Of a DNA stretch of 64,000 nucleotides, positions 3,742 to 46,853 are shown in pieces (the first letter of the stretch is position 1; each line of letters starts with the position of its first letter). The position numbers and the translations under genes are program-made. Source of the DNA: Christensenellales bacterium. GTDB taxonomy: Bacteria; Bacillota; Clostridia; Christensenellales; UBA1242. Location: assembly GCA_051883495.1 (NCBI GenBank), contig JBJETV010000023.1, positions 30,285 through 94,284 on the forward strand, written 5' to 3'. The notes beneath the pieces are model-generated. The model ran no database searches. It had not been told where the DNA came from and saw only the letters and a program-made list of their open reading frames with translations.

Positions 3742-4086
3742 ATGAGAATTAAAAGAGCAGTTAACAAAAACAAACACAAAAAAGCAATCCTAAAGCAAGC
3801 AAAGGGCTTTAGAGGAACAAGAAGCAAACTGGTAAGAGTGGCCAATGAATCTGTTATGAGAAGCTTGCGTCATGCTTACATTGGAAGAAAACTTAAAAAG
3901 AGAGATATGCGCCAACTTTGGATTGCTCGTATCAATGCAGGTTGCAGACAAAATGGTCTTAGCTACAGCAAATTTATGGGCGGCCTAAAAGCAAAAAATA
4001 TCAATCTCAACAGAAAAGTTCTTGCAGATATGGCAGTGAACGACAAGGCTGGATTTAGCAAACTTGTAGAAGAAGTAAAAGCATAA
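3742..4086 (+). CDS. rplT: 50S ribosomal protein L20
   Basis: 114-aa translation ([14 protein letters not shown]...[24 protein letters not shown]) is typical of L20. Confidence 0.95.
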
Positions 4087-4896: not shown

Positions 4897-5454
4897 ATGA
4901 TTTCTGCAGGAGAATTTAGAAAGGGTGTTACATTTGAATATGAAGGCAATATCTACATTGTAGTTGACTTTCAACATGTAAAACCAGGCAAAGGTGCTGC
5001 ATTTGTGCGCACAAAAATGAAAAATATTGTAACTGGACAAGTTTTGGAAAGAACCTTCAACCCAACAGAAAAGGTTGAAGAAGCCAAAATTGAAAAGAAA
5101 GAAATGCAATATCTTTACAATGAAGATGGCATTTATTACTTTATGGATATGGAAACATATGACCAAATTCCTCTAAACTATGACCAAGTGCAAGAGGCTA
5201 TGAAGTATGTTATCGAAAATATGATGGTTTCTATCCAATTCTACAAGGGTAAAGCATTTTCCGTTTTGCCACCAATGTTTGTAGAACTTAATATCACCGA
5301 TTGTGAACCAGGAATTCAGGGAGATACATCAAAAGCAGGCAACAAGCCAGCAACCTTGGAAACAGGGCTTGTTATCCAAGTTCCTTTGTTTGTAAACAAC
5401 GGGGATAGAATCCGCATCGACACCAGAACTGGTGAATATATGGAGAGAGTGTAA
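4897..5454 (+). CDS. efp: elongation factor P
   Basis: 185-aa translation [43 protein letters not shown] is canonical EF-P. Confidence 0.95.
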
Positions 5455-5566: not shown

Positions 5567-5656
5567 TTGCAAAAAAGGGTGGAATAGTGGTTATTTTGTC
5601 GTTTATGCTTGATTTGATTATGGGATAAATATACATAGGAGGTAAGAAGGTGTGAT

Positions 5657-6571
5657 ATGTTTGAAGAACTTTTTCCTCAATATATTTTTAAGGCAGTTTC
5701 TCTTTTGCCTATAAAAAAATTGAATGAAATACGATTAAGGCTTAACAAAAAGATTGTGGTTACTTTGCAGGGCAAGTCTTATTATTTGTGCCAGGAGGGG
5801 CTTACTGGCAATGCAGAGAAGGCAATTGTTGCAGACAAATTTTTGATTGATGAAATTGTAAAAAGGGCTTGTGAAAATTCTGTGTATGCTTATTCCAATC
5901 AAATAAAGGAAGGTTTTTTGACACTAAAAGGTGGTGCAAGAGTAGGTTTGTGCGGTGAGGGAGTGTGCGAAAATGGAGGGATAAAAACTTTGAAGAATAT
6001 CAACAGTCTTGCAATAAGAGTTCCGCATGAGGTAAAAGGCTGTTCACTATCAGCAATGGAGTATTTGTTTAGGAATGGTTTTTTAAGCACTTTGATCATT
6101 TCTCCCCCTGGATGTGGGAAAACTACTTTTATAAGAGATTTGATTTATCAGTTGTCGCAAAAAAATTATTGTTACAACGTGCTGGTGTGTGATGAAAGAT
6201 TTGAGATTGCAAATTGCTTTAACGGCATAAATACCCTGGATATTGGCGAATTTTGTGACATAGAGAGTGGAGTATCCAAGAGTTACGCATTCAAAAACGG
6301 CATTAGGGCAATGCGACCAGATATATTGGTAACCGACGAACTGGGGAGCAAAGAAGATTTTGATGCGGTGGTGGAAGCAAGCAGTTGTGGCACTGTCCTT
6401 TTGGCTTCAATTCATGCAAAAGACATAGACGACCTAAAACTGAAACCAAATTTTGAACAAATATTAAAAGAAAAGGTTTTTGACAGGTATGTAGTGCTGT
6501 CTTCTCGCAATGGGCCGGGAACAGTGGAAGGCATTTTTGATGAAAATCTAAGATGTATAAGTTATATTTAA
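5657..6571 (+). CDS. spoIIIAA: stage III sporulation protein AA (ATPase)
   Basis: 304 aa with Walker A PPGCGKTT and a DELG Walker B-like motif. First gene of an eight-gene spoIIIA-like operon downstream of efp. Confidence 0.88.
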   Translation: MFEELFPQYIFKAVSLLPIKKLNEIRLRLNKKIVVTLQGKSYYLCQEGLTGNAEKAIVADKFLIDEIVKRACENSVYAYSNQIKEGFLTLKGGARVGLCGEGVCENGGIKTLKNINSLAIRVPHEVKGCSLSAMEYLFRNGFLSTLIISPPGCGKTTFIRDLIYQLSQKNYCYNVLVCDERFEIANCFNGINTLDIGEFCDIESGVSKSYAFKNGIRAMRPDILVTDELGSKEDFDAVVEASSCGTVLLASIHAKDIDDLKLKPNFEQILKEKVFDRYVVLSSRNGPGTVEGIFDENLRCISYI

Positions 6572-7730: not shown

Positions 7731-9119
7731 ATGGGATATGATAAAAGAGAATTTAATGTGAAAAAATTATTAAGTTGTGCAAAAATTTATTTTGTTATAT
7801 TAAGTATCATTCTGTTGTGTTTAATAACTTTTTGCTCGATTGTCAAAGATGATGACAAAATAATAGAGAAAAACTATTTTCAAACTATTCAACCGCAAGG
7901 TGAAATTTTTTGCATAAAAAAACATGATAGTTTGGAAAATGATTTGTTTGACAACAGCATTGTTTTTTGCAGTAGTGGGAACGGATTAGTTTTTAGCAAT
8001 AAAGAAGCAAACAACCTGCTTGGAACAGAAAATCTGGAAGAAGAATTGGGTGAAAATATAGACAAACAGTTGGATGACATAGACTTCGATATTTTGGACA
8101 ATCAGATTGACAACCTAGACTTAAGCGAAAAAGATTTTGTTGGCAAAAAGAGTTTTTTGGAACTTGTAAAGAGTTTTATATCTGGAGAAAATGACAGTAT
8201 ATATAATGATTTTATTCCATATGCACTAGGAACTTTGTTTGATTTTGTATTGGAGTATGTTCCTTATTTTGCAGTGATTATTGCGGTTATCATTGGATAT
8301 AGTCTGTTGAGCAATGTTACCGATGATGGTGGCGGAGTGGGAAGGATAGTGTATATCGCTTGTTTTGGCACTGTGGCTACTATTGTTCTAAAACTTATTA
8401 TTGATGTTTTACATTCCAGTTCGCAAGCGATAGGGCTTATGCAAACACAGATGGAGGCTATCTTTCCGATTCTTCTAACACTTATGACCGCTATTGGTGG
8501 GGTGGTGTCGGCAAGCACTTTTCAACCTTTTATGGCGGTTTTGTCTAGCGGAATATCCAAGATGTTTTCTTCCATAATGGTTCCTGTGTTTATATTTAGC
8601 ATAGTATTTTGCACCATAGGAGCAATATCCAAAAATGTTAAACTAGAAAAGTTTTCAAAGTTTTTCACCAGTTTGTTTTCGTGGGTAGTTGGGGTGGTGT
8701 TTACAGTGTTTATAGCCTTTTTATCTGTAAGTGGGCTTACTTCTGCGACTGCAGATTCGATATCGCTAAAAACCGCTAAATTTGCGATAAAAAGTTACGT
8801 CCCAATGGTCGGAGGATACCTGTCGGACGGAATGAGTGTTATTGTTTGTAGCAGTGTTTTGGTGAAGAATGCTATAGGGATTTCTGGGCTCGTATTGTTG
8901 GTCGCAACAGTGTTTGCTCCAATAATAAAGATAGGAATTTTGATATTGCTCCTAAAACTTACATCTGCAATTTTGGAGCCATTGTGTGACAAGGAATTGC
9001 CAGACTTTCTGTTTGCAGTGTCAAAAACGCTTAATATGCTGGTTGTTTGTCTTTTGGCAGTTGGTGTTATGTATTTAATATCAATTTCGCTTGTTATGTG
9101 TTGTGCAAACGCATTGTGA
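7731..9119 (+). CDS. spoIIIAE: stage III sporulation protein AE
   Basis: Large polytopic membrane protein. Start moved to ATG 7731, just after the AD stop. Operon position fits. Confidence 0.8.
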   Translation: MGYDKREFNVKKLLSCAKIYFVILSIILLCLITFCSIVKDDDKIIEKNYFQTIQPQGEIFCIKKHDSLENDLFDNSIVFCSSGNGLVFSNKEANNLLGTENLEEELGENIDKQLDDIDFDILDNQIDNLDLSEKDFVGKKSFLELVKSFISGENDSIYNDFIPYALGTLFDFVLEYVPYFAVIIAVIIGYSLLSNVTDDGGGVGRIVYIACFGTVATIVLKLIIDVLHSSSQAIGLMQTQMEAIFPILLTLMTAIGGVVSASTFQPFMAVLSSGISKMFSSIMVPVFIFSIVFCTIGAISKNVKLEKFSKFFTSLFSWVVGVVFTVFIAFLSVSGLTSATADSISLKTAKFAIKSYVPMVGGYLSDGMSVIVCSSVLVKNAIGISGLVLLVATVFAPIIKIGILILLLKLTSAILEPLCDKELPDFLFAVSKTLNMLVVCLLAVGVMYLISISLVMCCANAL

Positions 9120-15560: not shown

Positions 15561-15755
15561 ATAATGCCAATTCTACAAATTGGAGAGTTGAAGGAATATA
15601 TCATAATTTTTGATTGAATAAAACCTGTTTTGACGATGAAATTGAAAGTGAACAAAGGCTAGAAGTGTGATAATAAGCGGAAAGTATGGGTTTGACTGGC
15701 TATACAATTTGTTATTTATTATTATAAATATTTGTGCATAAATATAAAAAATACC

Positions 15756-15807
15756 TATGAATAAATATTCAAAAATCGCTTGCATAAATATAAAAAATAT
15801 GTATAAT
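15756..15807 (+). promoter_or_regulatory. argR promoter with ARG box
   Basis: TATGAATAAATATTCAAA at 15756-15773 fits the ARG box consensus TnTGAATwwwwATTCAnw. Promoter TTGCAT 15780-15785, 16-nt spacer, TATAAT 15802-15807. A half-box ATGAATAAGCATCA follows at 15821-15834. Confidence 0.65.
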
Positions 15808-15847
15808 TGTTCGTGCAATCATGAATAAGCATCAAGGAGGATTTGAT

Positions 15848-16303
15848 ATGGCACGAAGTAGCAGACAGTCAAAGATTTTGGAGATTATATCTACAAATGA
15901 GGTAGAAACTCAAGAGGATTTAGTAGCAAGGCTTAGAGCTTGCAACTTTGATGTAACGCAGGCAACTATCAGCAGAGATATAAAGGAATTGGGGCTGATA
16001 AAAACTCTTTCTACAGAAAGTGGTAAATATAAATATTCCTACACTGATTCTACAACTCAAACCTCCAACAAATATATCTATATGTTAAAAGAGTCGGTAA
16101 TCTCCTCTCGCACGATAAAAAATTTTGTCCTTATCAAAACTCTAAAGGGGTTGGCAAATGGCATTTGCAGTGTGATAAACAGGTTGAACATAGAAGATTT
16201 GCTTGGTGCTACATATGGTGAAGATACTGTTATGCTAATTTTTGAGGACAATGCAACGGCAGAGTATTCTCGCACAAAACTTGATGCAATTATCAATTCC
16301 TAA
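15848..16303 (+). CDS. argR: arginine repressor
   Basis: Tracked ORF trimmed to ATG 15848 after GGAGGA. Winged-helix N-terminus (SRQSKILEIISTNEVETQEDLV...TQATISRDIKELGL). Upstream of recN as in B. subtilis ahrC-recN. Confidence 0.9.
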   Translation: MARSSRQSKILEIISTNEVETQEDLVARLRACNFDVTQATISRDIKELGLIKTLSTESGKYKYSYTDSTTQTSNKYIYMLKESVISSRTIKNFVLIKTLKGLANGICSVINRLNIEDLLGATYGEDTVMLIFEDNATAEYSRTKLDAIINS

Positions 16304-16469
16304 TGCTTTGAAATAATTTTTTTAGGAAAAACCATTTTCTTACTATCTAACATTATTTTAGATTTTCCGGTTGTTCTTATAGTCAAATGACTTAGATTTT
16401 AGTTAAGGCAAACACTAATTAAATAATTTAGATAAGTTAGACTTTAATTAAATAAATTAGTTTTATTCG

Positions 16470-16565
16470 TTTTTACAAATTAGGTTTTATTTGCTTTTTA
16501 CAAATTAGATTTTTAATTTTACAAATTAGGTTTTATTTGCTTTTACAATTTAGATTTTATTTTTT
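16470..16565. repeat. degenerate tandem repeat, TTTTACAAATTAG(G/A)TTTT units
   Basis: TACAA(A)TT cores at 16474, 16499, 16520 and 16544. Alternating A-B-A-B units give a super-period of 45-46 bp. Confidence 0.8.
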
Positions 16566-38033: not shown

Positions 38034-38289
38034 ACAAAATTATATTTGTAGCAAATCTATCACTTGCAACTCTTGTATAATACCACAAAAAAATAAAACA
38101 TGCAATAATTTTTTTGGACTTTTTCTAAAAAAAATAAAAATAGTTCTGTTTTTGACGTTAGACAACGTTGAAATTGAGGATTTGAAGGTTATTGCTGAAA
38201 TAAAGAGATTATTTAATAAATATATTTTCTTAATTAAATCTTCGAGTAAAATGTTTTGCCAATTACAATTATTGTTGTATAATCATTGT

Positions 38290-38781
38290 ATGAAAGAAGT
38301 ATATATTTGGACAGATGGAGCATGCTCTGGCAATCCTGGGCCTGGGGGCTATGCGGGGATTGTTACTTGTGAAGGCAAAGGGAAGAATGTCTTTGGAGCA
38401 AGGGCAGAAACCACAAACAATAGAATGGAATTGCTGGCAGTTATAAAGGCTTTAGGGTTGTTAAAAGTGAAATGCAAGGTGGTATTGCATTCTGACAGCG
38501 CTTATGTATGCAATGCGATAAATAATGGTTGGCTGGAAAGTTGGCAGTTGAGAGGGTGGAAAACTGCAGACAAGAAGCCTGTTCTCAATCAAGAACTTTG
38601 GGAAGAATTGTTAGATTTGTTGACCAAGCACGAAGTTCACTTTGTAAAGGTTAAAGGTCATGCTGATAATAAACTTAACAACGAGTGCGATGAATTGGCT
38701 CGAAATGCTATCCTTATGATGCAATCGAGAAATGTTGATTCTTTTGACGATGTAACAGTTAGAAAAATGGATAAAACATAA
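38290..38781 (+). CDS. rnhA: ribonuclease HI
   Basis: Tracked ORF 38029-38781 trimmed to ATG 38290. VYIWTDGACSGNPGPGGYA...TNNRMEL...HSDS...VKGHADNKLNNECDELA contains the RNase H DEDD residues. Confidence 0.9.
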   Translation: MKEVYIWTDGACSGNPGPGGYAGIVTCEGKGKNVFGARAETTNNRMELLAVIKALGLLKVKCKVVLHSDSAYVCNAINNGWLESWQLRGWKTADKKPVLNQELWEELLDLLTKHEVHFVKVKGHADNKLNNECDELARNAILMMQSRNVDSFDDVTVRKMDKT

Positions 38782-39008
38782 TATTATTTACATTTTTAGT
38801 GTCTATATTTATAAAGTTTTTATTTATAAGGTCCTTGTTTATAATATTTTTATTATATATCTTTATTTATAGTGTTTCTGTTTACAGTATTTTTGCTTAT
38901 AATTTTTTGTTATATAACTTTACAAGTAAATATCCTCCAATCAAATGGAGGATATTTTTTATCAATTATATTTTGTTAAACTCTGTAAAATGATAATTGT
39001 TATAATAA

Positions 39009-39263
39009 TTATTTGTGCCTACAAAGTTTGTGGTCTATTAGGAGAGTTATTGAAAGTATTATGACAATGTAAAAAAGAATATACAAAATGTGTGGATAAA
39101 TGCAACTTGCTCCAATGGTTTGCAACTCTGTAGCAATGGACACAGAGTGTGAAAAAGGAAGAAGGTTTATTATCTTTCCAAATGTTCCAGAGAAAGAACT
39201 TGTTGGCATAAAAATCCCGCCAAAAACACCTATAACACTTATTAAGATAGAGGATATTCTTAC
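39009..39263 (-). pseudogene. 3' remnant of an ABC-2 type transporter permease gene
   Basis: The minus-strand frame reads VRISSILISVIGVFGGIFMPTSSFSGTFGKIINLLPFSHSVSIATEL...HK*. This is the typical C-terminal region of ABC-2 permeases. It is preceded by an in-frame TAA, with no N-terminal part and no ATPase gene. Confidence 0.55.
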
Positions 39264-39727
39264 TTATATTTTAGTTCTTCTTTATAAATTGTCAAAAGAT
39301 TTAATATAAAAAAATTAAAAATTATTAAAATATTATGCTAAAAATTATGAAATATTAGGCAATAATACTGCAAATTTTATATTCTTTGCTGTAATATCTT
39401 GTTTGTGTATGTTGGAAATGTAAGACAAAATTTGCTGTATTTTGTTTTAATTGTAAAATCTTATAAAAGTTGTCAGACAATATTCTGGGTGAGTTATAAA
39501 ATGGTTTTTAGCATCTAGCATATTGTTAAGGTGTAAATGTGGTTGGGGTATTGAAAACTTATAATATTAACAATTTCCAATGATTTTATATTCAATATAA
39601 TGCTTCTATTTCAACATATTTAGTATAAACATTCATATTTTTCAAAAATTATATAGATTTGACTTGTTTTGGCAATATATGTTTGCTAAACTTGTATAGA
39701 CAATATGTTGTGGGGAAAAATGGTTGT

Positions 39728-41221: not shown

Positions 41222-41460
41222 CAATATTTGATTTTTAATTTTGTTGATTTTACTTATGTTTTGTTGATTTTATTTATAAATATTGATAGATAAATTTTAT
41301 GTGTAAATATAAAGATATTGATAATCAATGTTGTATATAAGGATATTGATGGTTAATCTTGTGTATAAACATAAATAACTTGATTGTTGACTCTAATATA
41401 CGAAATAAAAACTTGATAGTTGAGTTTTATATACTTGATAGTTGAGATTTATATATAAAT
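41222..41460. repeat. degenerate tandem repeats (TTGAT-containing units) upstream of murI, ending in a near-perfect 22-nt duplication
   Basis: Units contain ATATTGATAG/ATATTGATAA/ATATTGATGG/CTTGATTG. The array ends with CTTGATAGTTGAGTTTTATATA 41412-41433 and CTTGATAGTTGAGATTTATATA 41434-41455. Confidence 0.8.
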
Positions 41461-41530: not shown

Positions 41531-42286
41531 ATGGAGAGTATTTTTGTTTTTGACAGTGGTAGTGGTGGGGAATTTGTAACCAAAGAACTTTTGCGTGCCT
41601 TGCCACAAGAAAATTTTGTGCTGTATAAAGATGTAAAAAATTGTCCTTATAGCACCAAAAGCAAGATAAAACTTTGGCATATTGCTTGCAAGATTTTGAA
41701 AACCGCTACAAAGGTTTTAAGCCCCAAAGCAATAGTAGTTGCCTGCAACACTATGAGCAGTCTGTTTGAAAATAGAATAAGAAAAAAATTTGGCACTATT
41801 CCAATATTTTTTGTTACCCCAATGATAACCAATAAAATTTTGTCAAAAAAGACTCTTGTTCTTGCTACAACCCGTACTGTTAGTTGCAATAAGGAGGTAT
41901 TAAGCGCAAAAAGCAACAAAAATTGCATTGTTGTTGGCTTTGATAATTTGGCAAAAATGATAGACCTGGCAAAAGACTCGCCAAAGGTTGATGCAGATAT
42001 AAAATTGCTTTTACTAAATAGCCTAAGTAAATACAAGATATTTGGCATTAAAAATATAGTTTTGGGTTGCACGCATTACAGTTATATAAAAAAGCATTTG
42101 AAAGAGATTTTTGGCAATGTCAAGTTTTATGAAAAAAGCAAAATCATTGCCCAAGAATTAAAGGATTATTTGCAAAATTCAAACCCTGAAGAAAGCAAAA
42201 TTTTATCAAAGAAAAACCTAAAAACGATATTCAACAAGCAGGTTATTGTCGTGGAAAATATAAAAGAATTAAAGTTGTTTGCTTAG
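41531..42286 (+). CDS. murI: glutamate racemase
   Basis: FVFDSGSGG, VVACNTMS and VLGCTHYS motifs (two catalytic Cys) of the Asp/Glu racemase family. No Shine-Dalgarno sequence upstream. Confidence 0.85.
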   Translation: MESIFVFDSGSGGEFVTKELLRALPQENFVLYKDVKNCPYSTKSKIKLWHIACKILKTATKVLSPKAIVVACNTMSSLFENRIRKKFGTIPIFFVTPMITNKILSKKTLVLATTRTVSCNKEVLSAKSNKNCIVVGFDNLAKMIDLAKDSPKVDADIKLLLLNSLSKYKIFGIKNIVLGCTHYSYIKKHLKEIFGNVKFYEKSKIIAQELKDYLQNSNPEESKILSKKNLKTIFNKQVIVVENIKELKLFA

Positions 42287-42325
42287 AGATTTGAGCATAA
42301 AAAAAAGCCCCAAACGGAGCAGATA

Positions 42326-42402
42326 TGGTGGTCCCAATAGGACTCGAACCTATGACCTCTTCGATGTGAACGAAGCGCTCTAACCAACTGAGCCATGGGA
42401 CC
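42326..42402 (-). tRNA. tRNA-Val (anticodon CAC), CCA encoded
   Basis: Reverse complement folds as GGTCCCA-T-GGCTCAGTTGGTTAGAGC-G-CTTCG-TTCACAT-CGAAG-AGGTC-ATAGG-TTCGAGT-CCTAT-TGGGACC-A-CCA. Confidence 0.93.
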
Positions 42403-42414
42403 TTAACTGCAAAT

Positions 42415-42442
42415 ATATTACCACAAAAAAATAAAAAATCAA
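42415..42442 (-). promoter_or_regulatory. tRNA-Val promoter (extended -10)
   Basis: Minus strand reads TTGATT (42442-42437), 16-nt spacer, TGg-TAATAT (42420-42415). The tRNA 5' end lies 12 nt downstream. Confidence 0.6.
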
Positions 42443-42459
42443 GTAAATTGATTATATTT

Positions 42460-42798
42460 TTGAAAAAATGAGCAAAAATTTTTTGAAATGAAAGGTTTTG
42501 TTCTTTTGAAATGATAGGGCTTATCCATTAAAAACGAAAACCTCATCCTCTCGAAATGAAAACTATCTCCCTTTGAAGTGATAAACTTTGCCTATTTGGA
42601 AAAAACATTGTTCTTTTGAAATTATATATTTGTATGTTTTGGGGTGAAGAGTTTTATTTAGTTGAAATTAAAGGTTTAGATGCTTTGAGGTGAAAAATTT
42701 TGTTTAGTTGAAATTAAAAATTTATTATTTTGGAATGAAAGATTTTGTTTGCTTGAAATTATGATTTTTATTATTTTAGAATGAAAGAAATTTTGACT
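42460..42798. repeat. about 15-unit degenerate tandem array, 23-bp unit / 46-bp super-unit (TTGAAATGAAA... alternating with TTGAAATTA...)
   Basis: Unit starts (TTGA/TTGG/TCGA/TTAG) at 42460, 42483, 42506, 42528, 42551, 42573, 42596, 42616, 42639, 42662, 42685, 42708, 42730, 42753 and 42776. Spacing is 20-23 bp. Confidence 0.9.
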
Positions 42799-42848
42799 TA
42801 TATAATAAATGAATGATTTAATGTAAAAAATTTATTCAATTTTTATTA

Positions 42849-42871
42849 AAAAAATCCTCCAAAGCGGAGGA
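42849..42871 (-). terminator. intrinsic terminator of the Asn-rich lipoprotein gene
   Basis: Minus strand reads CCTCC-GCTTT-GGAGG followed by ATTTTTTT, immediately after the stop codon. Confidence 0.75.
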
Positions 42872-42877
42872 TATTTG

Positions 42878-45049
42878 TTATGCACGCACTTGCTTTGGCC
42901 CAAATGAAAGGGAATAGGCGGAGTGGTAAGAATTTGAACAAGTTTTTTCCAAATAATCTACAACAGGGAGTTTTAGTGGGGCTGTGTAGTAGTTTATCCC
43001 AGTGTTGTTTTGCACATTAGAGTTGTTCCTTGTATTTTGACTATTTGTTCCAACATTGCCATTTTGATATTGATTATTTTTATTTGTTTGGTTATATCTT
43101 TGAATGTTGTTATAGTTGTTTATTGCGTTGTAAGACTGACTATTTTGATTGTTTCTGTTGTAATTATTATTTTGCATATTATTTCTGTTATAGTTTCTGT
43201 CGGTTGTATTATAATTGCGTGATGTAGTATTTTGATTATAATTCTTGTTTATATTACTATAATTTTGAGAATTATTTTGGACAGTATTTCTATTTGAATT
43301 GTTTATTCCATTCATATTTTGAGTATTGTTGTAGTTGGTGGCAGAATGGGAATTGTTTATTCTATTGTTTTGATTATCATAATTAGTCTTTCTTATTGTA
43401 TTATTTGAAGAATTGTCCATTTGAGTTGTTTTGTTGTTTTGAATTTTATTATAACTTACACCGTAGTTTGAATTTTGATTTTTGTTTGTTGTAGAGTTGT
43501 TGATATTTGTATTAGAATTGTTTATTACATTTTGACTTGAAATCTTTTGATTGTTTGCAGGTATAGTTTGATTTGAATTGTTATTTGATGTATTATTCTC
43601 TGAAATTCTTGTTGCACTGTCGGCAGAATTTCTATCTTGAGTGGAATAATTTTGATTTGCAATTTTTTGATTATTATTAAAATTGCTATCTATTGTTCTG
43701 TCATCAGCCAACGACTTGTATGTGCGTTGTGGCACAATAGTTGGAGTGGAAGTATTGTTATATTTATTTTCTAAATATTCTTGAGGATTCTTTATATCCT
43801 TTGTGTAGGCATTGTTGTAGTTGTTTTTTTGAGTGTTTTGTGAGTTATTAGAAAAACTGGTTGAGTTGTTTTGATACCCATTTGAATTGTTTTGATATCT
43901 ATTTGTGTTTTCTTGATATCTATTCGAGTTGTTTTGATATCTGCTTGAGTCATAAACTCTGTTGTTTGTTCTGTTGGTTGAGTTATAATTGTTTGATTGG
44001 TTGTTTTGATTTATATAACTGTTCCTATTGTTTTGTGAGTTATAAGTTCTATTTCTGGAAGTTTGATATCTATTGCTTTCAAACTGATTTTTTGCATAAT
44101 TATATCTGTTTTTGGCTGTTTGATTGGAGCCTAACATTGCTTCATTGGTTGTTTTTTCGCCAAGAAGTTTGCTGGCAAAATTGATAAGGTCAATAACAGA
44201 ATTGTTTGCATTGTTGCAAGTATTGCAATTGGAGTCTATGCAGTTGTAGATATTTCTATAGTCTGCTGTCATAGAGCCAGAATTGCTGGCGAGATTCAGT
44301 TTTTTCTTGCCGATAGAGTTCACTGTAGATTTGCAACCTTTGCAGGAAGTAATGTTATTGGTGCATTGCTTGATAACTTCATAATAACTATTTAGCGTCT
44401 TTACATCACTATCCGAAAGTTTTGCTTCACCATTTTTTAATCTTTCCAAGAGTTCTTTGGCACGATTGCAGTTGTTAATAAGTGATGTCTTTGTGCTAGA
44501 ATATTCTTTGTTTAGGTCACAAACATTGTTGCAAGCAGTTCTGAGGTCATTGTAACCACTGTCGCTGGTTGCAAGGTTAAGGTTTCTTTTGGTTGCTCTA
44601 TAATCACTTGATGCAAAAAGATTGGCATTGGCTCGTTGAGTCATATGATTTTTTGTTGGCATTTTTACATTCAGCACTTCTCTGTATGGATAAATATTTC
44701 TTCTAGTGTTGCTTCTTTGACTAGATGTATCAGCATTCTGCGTGTTTGAAGTGTTGTAGTTTTGAGAGTAATTCTTGCACTTATAGCAACTGCCATTTTC
44801 ACAATAATAGCAATCATCTCCATAGCAGTGATAACCGTCAGATGTGTCCATATTTTCTCCCAAAATAGAGTTTAGATCTATTTTGTCGGTGTTTACATCT
44901 TCCAGTTTTTTCACCTGGGATATCATTTTATCCAACCCCCCAGATATTTTTTTGCTGGCAAGTTTAACCTGCGCCTGATTGCCATTTGAACATGCAAAAA
45001 GGAAAGTGCAAGCCAGCAAAATTGACAATAATCCAATAAATTTTTTCAT
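42878..45049 (-). CDS. lipoprotein with Cys-rich N-terminal half and roughly 400-aa Asn/Gln/Ser/Tyr-rich low-complexity C-terminal half
   Basis: Signal peptide plus lipobox MKKFIGLLSILLACTFLFAC-S. Cys clusters (HCYGDDCYYCENGSCYKC, CNNVC, CKGCK, CIDSCNTC). From about residue 325 onward, nearly continuous N/Q/S/T/Y/R sequence with heptad-like NRYQNNS repeats. Confidence 0.8.
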   Translation of the reverse strand: MKKFIGLLSILLACTFLFACSNGNQAQVKLASKKISGGLDKMISQVKKLEDVNTDKIDLNSILGENMDTSDGYHCYGDDCYYCENGSCYKCKNYSQNYNTSNTQNADTSSQRSNTRRNIYPYREVLNVKMPTKNHMTQRANANLFASSDYRATKRNLNLATSDSGYNDLRTACNNVCDLNKEYSSTKTSLINNCNRAKELLERLKNGEAKLSDSDVKTLNSYYEVIKQCTNNITSCKGCKSTVNSIGKKKLNLASNSGSMTADYRNIYNCIDSNCNTCNNANNSVIDLINFASKLLGEKTTNEAMLGSNQTAKNRYNYAKNQFESNRYQTSRNRTYNSQNNRNSYINQNNQSNNYNSTNRTNNRVYDSSRYQNNSNRYQENTNRYQNNSNGYQNNSTSFSNNSQNTQKNNYNNAYTKDIKNPQEYLENKYNNTSTPTIVPQRTYKSLADDRTIDSNFNNNQKIANQNYSTQDRNSADSATRISENNTSNNNSNQTIPANNQKISSQNVINNSNTNINNSTTNKNQNSNYGVSYNKIQNNKTTQMDNSSNNTIRKTNYDNQNNRINNSHSATNYNNTQNMNGINNSNRNTVQNNSQNYSNINKNYNQNTTSRNYNTTDRNYNRNNMQNNNYNRNNQNSQSYNAINNYNNIQRYNQTNKNNQYQNGNVGTNSQNTRNNSNVQNNTGINYYTAPLKLPVVDYLEKTCSNSYHSAYSLSFGPKQVRA

Positions 45050-46771: not shown

Positions 46772-46853
46772 ATAAAGATAACTATTTGAAAGGGTAGATA
46801 AAGATAGAACTATTTGATGGATTAGATAAGGATGTAACCATTTGAAAGGGGTG
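46772..46853. repeat. three tandem 26-28-nt units filling the spoVAD-spoVAEb spacer
   Basis: ATAAAGATAACTATTTGAAAGGGTAG / ATAAAGATAGAACTATTTGATGGATTAG / ATAAGGATGTAACCATTTGAAAGGGGTG. The last unit supplies the spoVAEb RBS. Confidence 0.85.

Follow-up and report, generated by a model that had tools for sequence, protein, structure and literature searches.

The window, i.e. the whole 64-kb stretch of DNA that was analyzed, belongs to an uncultured gut Christensenellales genome and has a G+C content of 34.7%. Its gene content includes the sporulation genes SpoVAC, SpoVAD and YunB as well as PheS. Between a tRNA-Val gene and the gene of an Asn-rich putative lipoprotein, an array of short direct repeats is located. 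The features of this locus are the following:

41531-42286, plus strand: racemase gene, the protein of which is identical to an NCBI entry titled 'MAG: glutamate racemase'
42307-42320, minus strand: intrinsic terminator 3' of tRNA-Val, detected by a terminator scan (GCTCCGTTTGGGGC followed by a T-run)
42326-42402, minus strand: tRNA-Val (anticodon CAC), identified by ARAGORN and by Rfam (tRNA, 72.4 bits)
42415-42442, minus strand: tRNA-Val promoter, read from the sequence
42443-42482, minus strand: promoter-proximal A/T-tract (UP-like) segment together with unit 1 of the array, conserved and predicted to be bent
42460-42527, plus strand: units 1-3, the older part of the array, common to the sister species (L134, L136, L003)
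42528-42615, plus strand: units 4-7, degenerate and relatively C-rich by unit alignment, containing CATTAAAAACGAAAA (42526-42540)
42616-42798, plus strand: units 8-15, four 46-bp dimers of B plus A type, delimited by TRF (periods 46 and 45), the repeat families D2 and D3 and unit alignment
42689-42732, plus strand: in-register two-unit segment of 44 bp, absent from the relative L133 according to the alignment
42753-42782, plus strand: TTGAAA-N18-TAGAAT, the only good sigma-70-like site on this strand, in the last B/A unit pair (promoter scan)
42799-42853, no strand: non-repeated A/T-rich spacer of 55 bp between array and terminator
42854-42872, minus strand: terminator hairpin of the lipoprotein gene (terminator scan; it scores on both strands)
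42878-45049, minus strand: gene of the 723-aa Asn-rich putative lipoprotein, whose translation begins with a lipoprotein-type signal (MKKFIGLLSILLAC)

The tRNA-Val promoter is well formed and comprises the -35 hexamer TTGATT (42442-42437), a 16-nt spacer and the extended -10 element TGgTAATAT (42423-42415). Its architecture and spacer are nearly identical to those of the tRNA-Leu promoter, which is also located on the minus strand (about 38060-38095). The form common to both promoters (TTGNNT-TTTTATTTTTTTGTGG-TAWTAT, with an extended -10) suggests a lineage-typical template for stable-RNA promoters. At the opposite end of the intergenic region, a hairpin homologous to the terminator of the lipoprotein gene, of the form CCNCCAAAGNGG, was also found in the relatives L133 and L134. 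No Pfam domain was detected in the 723-aa protein, orthologues of which occupy the syntenic position in the relatives. The gene itself contains in-frame tandem repeats of 21 and 27 bp (43861-44015). A 21-bp array is also present in the homologue of L134 (7356-7445), and the lengths of the orthologues range from 555 to 723 aa.

The array is composed of 15 head-to-tail units of 20-23 bp each, which fill positions 42460-42798. The units start at 42460, 42483, 42506, 42528, 42551, 42573, 42596, 42616, 42639, 42662, 42685, 42708, 42730, 42753 and 42776, and the last one ends at 42798. Their alignment yielded the consensus TTGAAATgAAAAatTTTgTT, in a longer form TTGAAATgAAAAatTTTgTT.tT, with the highest information content in the first 11 bp; as a synthetic multimer, the motif can be written as (TTGAAATGAAAG...)n. 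The units are 60-80% identical to one another. Self-identity of the array amounts to 0.50 at a lag of 23 and to 0.51 at a lag of 46, while the maximum reached by 1000 shuffles at any lag was 0.446, demonstrating that the periodicity is beyond chance. Within units 8-15, B-type units (TTGAAATTA...) alternate with A-type units (TTGRRRTGAAR...TTTTGTTTAG), and the alternation is confined to this part. TTGAAATTA is unchanged in all four B units, the 3' halves of which are only ~50% alike. TRF reported 3.2 copies of a 46-bp period at 42616-42761 (75% match) and 2.2 copies of a 45-bp period at 42691-42788 (84% match). Units 4-7 are scarcely recognizable as repeat copies.

Most of what an initial annotation of this DNA had said on the layout of the array is supported by these data, namely the 15 units at a spacing of 20-23 bp, their extent, and their position between the terminator of the lipoprotein gene and the tRNA-Val promoter. 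The array is also non-coding, as had been stated (no ORF of more than 35 aa lies within it), and was rightly distinguished from CRISPR, since its units directly adjoin each other, no unique spacers separate them, and two related units add up to the 46-bp period. The claimed 46-bp alternation is real in units 8-15, where TRF, the check proposed there, found the periods of 46 and 45 bp; the higher-order repeat, however, is not present in about seven copies as supposed but in about four dimers. An assembly artefact does not account for the array because two other assemblies, L001 and L002, which are independent, contain exactly the same sequence.

To compare the locus among relatives, contigs encoding racemase homologues were used, every one of these sequences being a metagenome assembly. 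The gene order RNase H ... DinB - racemase - tRNA-Val - lipoprotein - SpoVAC/SpoVAD is fixed in all relatives, the tRNA-Val gene lies at the same syntenic position in L003, L004, L005, L006, L133 and L134, and its promoter is kept in all relatives compared. The number of units differs as follows:

L001 and L002, identical to the window: 15 units
L133, amino acid identity of 95% (racemase) and 98% (DinB), divergence at 4-fold degenerate sites 0.081-0.095: 13 units
L134, L136, L139 and L003, racemase identity of 76-77%, divergence at 4-fold degenerate sites 0.45-0.50: about 4 units
L004, L005 and L006, racemase identity of 60-64%: no array, at most one unit-like remnant

The coding nucleotide divergence between the window and L133 is 2-4%, which places L133 in about the same species. 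Its array (5593-5887) measures 295 bp compared to 339 bp in the window. A single clean in-register two-unit indel (the 44-bp segment at 42689-42732) explains this difference, and unit 11' of L133 is a hybrid of the window units 11 and 13. A clean in-register indel along with a hybrid unit is characteristic of slippage or unequal exchange. Collapse of repeats by the assembler is unlikely to have caused the gap in L133, because the exact stretches common to units 11 and 13 are only ~8-10 bp long.

The four units of the sister species read TTGAAAAATAAGCAAAAAAATTT, TTGAAAAGAAAATTTTGTTCT, TGTGAAATGAGGGGGGGTATATT and TTAGAATAATTGATTTTAGGATA and are followed by a different A-rich stretch with a period of ~18 bp. 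Two samples of the species agree in this four-unit arrangement. In L004, L005 and L006, ~100-220 bp of unique sequence are found at the position of the array, and a unit-like remnant is located directly upstream of the promoter, e.g. TTGAAGAAGTTTTGTGAAAAATTTAAAATGA in L004. The initial annotation had named a unit restricted to this site, together with an array that is hypervariable or absent in close relatives, with no change in the neighboring genes, as the pattern that would indicate neutral slippage only. This is the pattern observed: the unit does not recur in the rest of the 64 kb, and 15, 13, about 4 and 0-1 units lie next to unchanged neighbor genes.

A search of metagenome contigs with a 30-mer spanning the junction of promoter and unit 1 recovered a single contig, which came from the sample that had also yielded L134, and revealed no new variant. 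The route to the array via lipoprotein homologues was uninformative since the 79%-identical homologues are differently arranged, with a convergent Flg_new gene. In a Flg_new-domain surface-protein gene beside the lipoprotein homologue, a C homopolymer differs in length between L011 (~8030-8045) and L012 (~8035-8050) and is a candidate phase-variable switch. An exact 15-mer, CATTAAAAACGAAAA, is located mid-array in the window (42526-42540), while in L134 it adjoins the terminator (6328-6342); the match scores 30 against a shuffle maximum of 26. Its displacement hints at an extra segmental duplication or rearrangement as the array grew.

To which extent the array is under constraint can be seen from the alignments with L133 and L134. 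Between the window and L133, 32 of 295 aligned array positions differ (10.8% raw). Eight of these differences go back to unit 7, where the register is shifted by 1 nt, and ~27 events (~9%) are counted after realignment. Sites with 4-fold degeneracy diverge by 8.1-9.5% in the same pair of sequences, which is the one comparison that provides the within-species rate. As both values are similar, the array looks neutral. Other intergenic DNA of the two genomes diverges by 2.8% and by about 8-10%, and the array is at least as divergent. The spacer at 42799-42853 shows two substitutions and one 4-bp indel in comparison with L133, and gave no significant alignment with L134 (score 30, shuffle maximum 33).

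By contrast, positions 42400-42485, which include the 5' end of the tRNA, the promoter, the UP-like tract and unit 1, do not reveal a single change in 86 bp between the window and L133. At a rate of 9%, the calculated chance of this is ~3e-4. In the comparison with L134, where 45-50% of the 4-fold degenerate sites are different, the promoter is 97% and the segment 42443-42459 100% identical. Identity then declines to 83% in unit 1, 70% in unit 2 and 64% in unit 3, and is at random level beyond. Constraint is thus strong beside the promoter and declines within about 100 bp; none is left in the other ~280 bp. Judging from these alignments, the promoter-proximal ~45-110 bp, i.e. the UP-like segment and units 1-3, predate the species split and are conserved far above neutral sites. 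The same segment stands out in its predicted shape. Curvature was calculated with Bolshoy-Trifonov wedge parameters, for which a positive control behaved as expected, and the resulting figures are approximate: strong bends are predicted only at 42425-42475 and at 42825-42860 (the latter about 52 degrees), and the proximal segment 42443-42482 would be bent by 43-55 degrees per 31 bp, which corresponds to at least the 95th-99th percentile of the window. The array body is predicted not to be curved (end-to-end ratio 0.86, compared to 0.85 for shuffles). An upstream activating region, which had been proposed for the entire array, is plausible as an upstream element in the proximal ~45-110 bp only; for the array as a whole, divergence at the synonymous rate speaks against the proposal.

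One may still ask whether the array in its entirety serves as an upstream activating region or as a binding platform with multiple sites, in which the TTGAAAT(G/T)AAA cores are bound, by a nucleoid-associated or regulatory protein or by the alpha-CTD of RNA polymerase, and modulate tRNA-Val transcription while the sites turn over rapidly. The 9-11-bp cores are conserved among the units far above the 3' halves, the array is situated directly upstream of a strong stable-RNA promoter, its proximal units are conserved across species, and E. coli rRNA and tRNA promoters possess UP elements and multiple Fis sites at this position. On the other hand, the distal units diverge at the synonymous rate, unit numbers range from 15 to 0-1 in the relatives although genes and promoter stay the same, and no regulator gene adjoins the array. 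Moreover, 23 and 46 bp correspond to 2.19 (23/10.5) and 4.38 (46/10.5) helical turns, so that the units do not lie on one helix face; this result and the uncurved array body speak against the phased protein-binding array that had been suggested initially. Nor did the unit recur elsewhere in the window: a 12-mer with up to two mismatches matched 35 times in the 64 kb compared to 29.7 expected matches, seven of the 35 lying inside the array, no further cluster of units turned up in the window or in related loci, and none was found upstream of tRNA-Thr, tRNA-Leu and tRNA-Trp. None of the common transcription-factor motifs considered (Spo0A, CodY, SinR, CcpA, PhoP/WalR, LytTR repeats, DnaA box) appears to fit the unit consistently. 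We therefore consider a binding platform extending over the whole array unlikely. A bolder proposal goes further, assuming that the cores are selected as loading sites for a protein or RNA polymerase, that the number of units is an evolvable 'volume knob' for tRNA-Val(CAC), and that unusually active tandem duplication in the intergenic DNA of this clade repeatedly makes tunable arrays of this kind upstream of promoters. This we regard as very unlikely. A putative second array upstream of tRNA-Trp was rejected, as it comprised only two weak copies. The pattern TTGAAATN{15,17}TTGRRRTN{15,17}TTGAAAT, applied to genome contigs, was too permissive, since the matches listed stem from unrelated taxa, mostly Bacteroidota and assorted MAGs.

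There is only a slim chance that the array acts on the plus strand, be it as a set of -35 decoys titrating a sigma factor or as a promoter cluster from which an antisense or small RNA would be transcribed in the direction of the lipoprotein gene. In the promoter version, each 46-bp dimer would correspond to a copy of an amplified promoter, the B unit providing the -35 and the A unit the -10. The site TTGAAA-N18-TAGAAT in the last B/A pair fits this model, and its equivalent is kept in L133 (TTGAAA-N18-TAGAAT) and L134 (GTGAAA-N18-TAGAAT). The 94-nt stretch from this site through the hairpin folds at z = -2.36, but this signal is essentially that of the terminator hairpin. The remaining B/A pairs, however, have poor -10 hexamers (TGGGGT, TGAGGT, TGGAAT), the DNA downstream (42799-42853) lacks a significant alignment in L134, and Rfam gave no match. 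Two promoter-like sites were detected in 800 bp while shuffles contained 3.6 +/- 2.1; the sigma-factor decoy that the initial annotation had considered is hence not backed by any excess of such sites. It is hardly credible that the array represents the iterons or the partition (centromere-like) site of an integrated plasmid or phage. Although iteron origins typically contain direct repeats of 22-23 bp and one DnaA-box-like TTATCCA is present (42521-42527), the flanks are chromosomal housekeeping genes in conserved synteny, without any rep, par or integrase gene, and the array grew stepwise within the lineage instead of arriving as an insertion. Blastn did not reveal any match in a plasmid collection and, in a phage collection, nothing to the array. 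The sole phage match, which is marginal (Spiroplasma phage SVGII3, 66 bp, 78.6% identity, E 0.01), concerns the non-repeated spacer (42788-42853) and thus lies outside the array. Finally, nothing but the repetitiveness itself speaks for a structured non-coding RNA, for a tRNA leader or for a degenerate CRISPR array, and these readings are effectively refuted. Rfam, even at permissive thresholds, recognized only the tRNA and no family in the array, the fold of the array is no better than that of shuffles on the minus (z = +0.67) or the plus strand (z = -0.98), the array is located upstream of the tRNA promoter, and, besides the lack of unique spacers, there are no cas genes among the neighboring ORFs scanned.

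The explanation that we prefer, with a probability of roughly 75%, regards the array as an intergenic minisatellite (VNTR), degenerate and specific to the lineage, which was generated by slippage or unequal exchange from older promoter-upstream sequence and in which the proximal UP-like segment alone is constrained. It is supported by the fact that the copy number tracks phylogenetic distance at a fixed gene order. The history of the locus might be as follows. In the ancestor, the tRNA-Val promoter would have been preceded by a short A/T-rich segment of about four 23-bp units, the last of them being the TTAGAAT unit, a state that is still visible in the sister species. In the lineage of the window, this segment may have been amplified through replication slippage or unequal exchange. 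Units of 23 bp would have been multiplied at first, diverging into two types, and two-unit blocks of 46 bp later. The ancestral frame would then consist of units 1-3 and the final unit (TTAGAAT...), between which the array expanded. Thereafter, the copies would drift at the neutral rate, while whole two-unit blocks are still gained or lost. Purifying selection appears to act only on the promoter-proximal piece, at about -36 to -75 and, more weakly, out to about -110. Most likely, this piece would work in the manner of an UP element, as a segment with an intrinsic bend upstream of the tRNA promoter, as its conservation and the curvature model suggest.

The age of the dimers can be estimated from their mutual differences. 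According to TRF, the 46-bp copies differ by 16-25%, which is about two to three times the divergence between the window and L133 and well below that between the window and L134. From this it can be inferred that the dimers were amplified after the split from the sister species but before the split between the window and L133, which agrees with the series of 4, 13 and 15 units. One feature of the array is not predicted by simple neutral decay after duplication, namely that the core is preserved better than the tails. Between the window and L133, core positions diverge by 6.9% and the remaining positions by 14.6% (raw; ~6% and 12% after realignment), a difference that is not significant. The preservation of the core among units may reflect selection for a binding motif or, equally, re-amplification favoring units that kept the core.

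Variable repeats are not restricted to the array. Of the 15 TRF arrays in the window with a period of at least 12 bp, ten are located within ~11 kb around the tRNA-Val locus, and L004 and L005 each possess one TRF array over the corresponding region. A comparison of the window with L133 revealed a 21-bp duplication, a copy number change in a 33-bp array and a 37-bp array with 4.4 copies within a few kb. This multitude of unrelated variable arrays indicates that the intergenic DNA of the clade is generally prone to tandem duplication and argues against a special device of tRNA-Val. A control of TRF density on loci selected by pattern was discarded as biased, since these loci had been picked for repeat-like patterns.

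Several of the other repeats and plastic segments deserve a description of their own. Directly upstream of argR (15821-16303, Pfam Arg_repressor), three units of ~23 bp that include a near-perfect ARG box (TATGAATAAATATTCA) are located at 15726-15800 and probably constitute an autoregulatory argR operator. Some tandem 'arrays' of the window are therefore ordinary operator sites. The interval between argR and recN (16454-16562) harbors 4.7 copies of TTTTACAAATTAGGTTTTATTTGC, a 24-bp unit with a 46-bp higher-order repeat that is 95% matched; in style it is the same as the tRNA-Val array, in sequence it is unrelated. Upstream of the racemase gene (41228-41455), TTGAT-rich tandem arrays with periods of 20, 28, 33 and 22 bp are present. 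L133 contains extra 33-bp copies there (3790-4081; 3.4-4.6 copies, compared to 1.9 in the window), and outside the arrays, conservation of this region is unusually high, with the 2.8% divergence from L133 given above. The spacer between the racemase gene and tRNA-Val measures ~580 bp in L133 (4861-5440), ~220 bp in L134 and L003, and ~20 bp in the window; in L133 it holds the 37-bp array (4939-5102), which the window lacks. Between RNase H and DinB, the window (38781-39659) is devoid of a three-gene block encoding an ABC2 permease, an ABC ATPase and a 71-aa SpoVT/AbrB-type protein (PF04014). The block is carried by L133 (118-1776), L134 (1422-3080), L004 and L005, and a 15-bp repeat with 4.9 copies marks its junction in the window (38801-38871). 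3' of spoVAD (46772-46850), a tandem repeat of 27-28 bp (ATAACTATTTGA.AGG...) occurs at the same position in L134 (10275-10345) and is, unlike the tRNA-Val array, positionally conserved.

As it stands, the array matters little, since it adds a single variable minisatellite, found in an uncultured gut Christensenellales genome, to those already known, and a constrained UP-like segment beside a tRNA promoter does not go beyond ordinary promoter biology. The array could nevertheless be used as a strain-typing marker and provides a small, clean case of a two-unit higher-order repeat arising in bacterial intergenic DNA. It would become interesting only if the number of units tuned tRNA-Val expression or if a protein bound the cores.

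The closest known counterparts are bacterial VNTR loci, which are used for MLVA typing, e.g. of Bacillus anthracis, Clostridioides difficile and Burkholderia. Like these, the array is head-to-tail, non-coding, built of units in the range of 10-100 bp, lineage-specific and mostly without detectable constraint, and its copy number differs among close relatives by in-register indels of whole units. What separates it from typical, more homogeneous VNTR markers are the units, which are only 60-80% identical and arranged in a two-unit higher-order repeat of 46 bp. Intergenic minisatellites and VNTR loci of bacteria have been described in genome-wide surveys (PMC1853098, PMC2884548). The proximal segment resembles the UP- and Fis-dependent sequences of E. 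coli (rrnB P1, tyrT) in that an A/T-tract adjoins the -35 of a stable-RNA promoter. Positions 42443-42459 correspond to what is expected of an UP element, as they are A/T-rich, located at about -40 to -60 and conserved with the promoter (100% in L133 and L134). Known UP elements cover no more than about -40 to -60, and the farthest Fis sites are located at about -150; Firmicutes are not known to possess Fis. In contrast to the E. coli regions, about 280 bp of further repeats follow here, which are unconstrained and dispensable in relatives, and the likeness is one of sequence.

Plasmid iterons (R6K, pPS10, RK2) are direct repeats of 17-22 bp with a spacing of ~22 bp. The array shares with them the unit length, the contiguous direct layout and a conserved core with variable flanks, but it lacks a Rep gene, the context of a mobile element and homology to plasmids, and it occupies a syntenic position on the chromosome. 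With regard to the higher-order repeat, there is a parallel to eukaryotic satellites such as alpha-satellite, in which diverged monomers are amplified jointly, here from 23 to 46 bp. The array comprises 340 bp whereas these satellites extend over megabases, in other organisms and with another function, so that what the two have in common is their mode of evolution.
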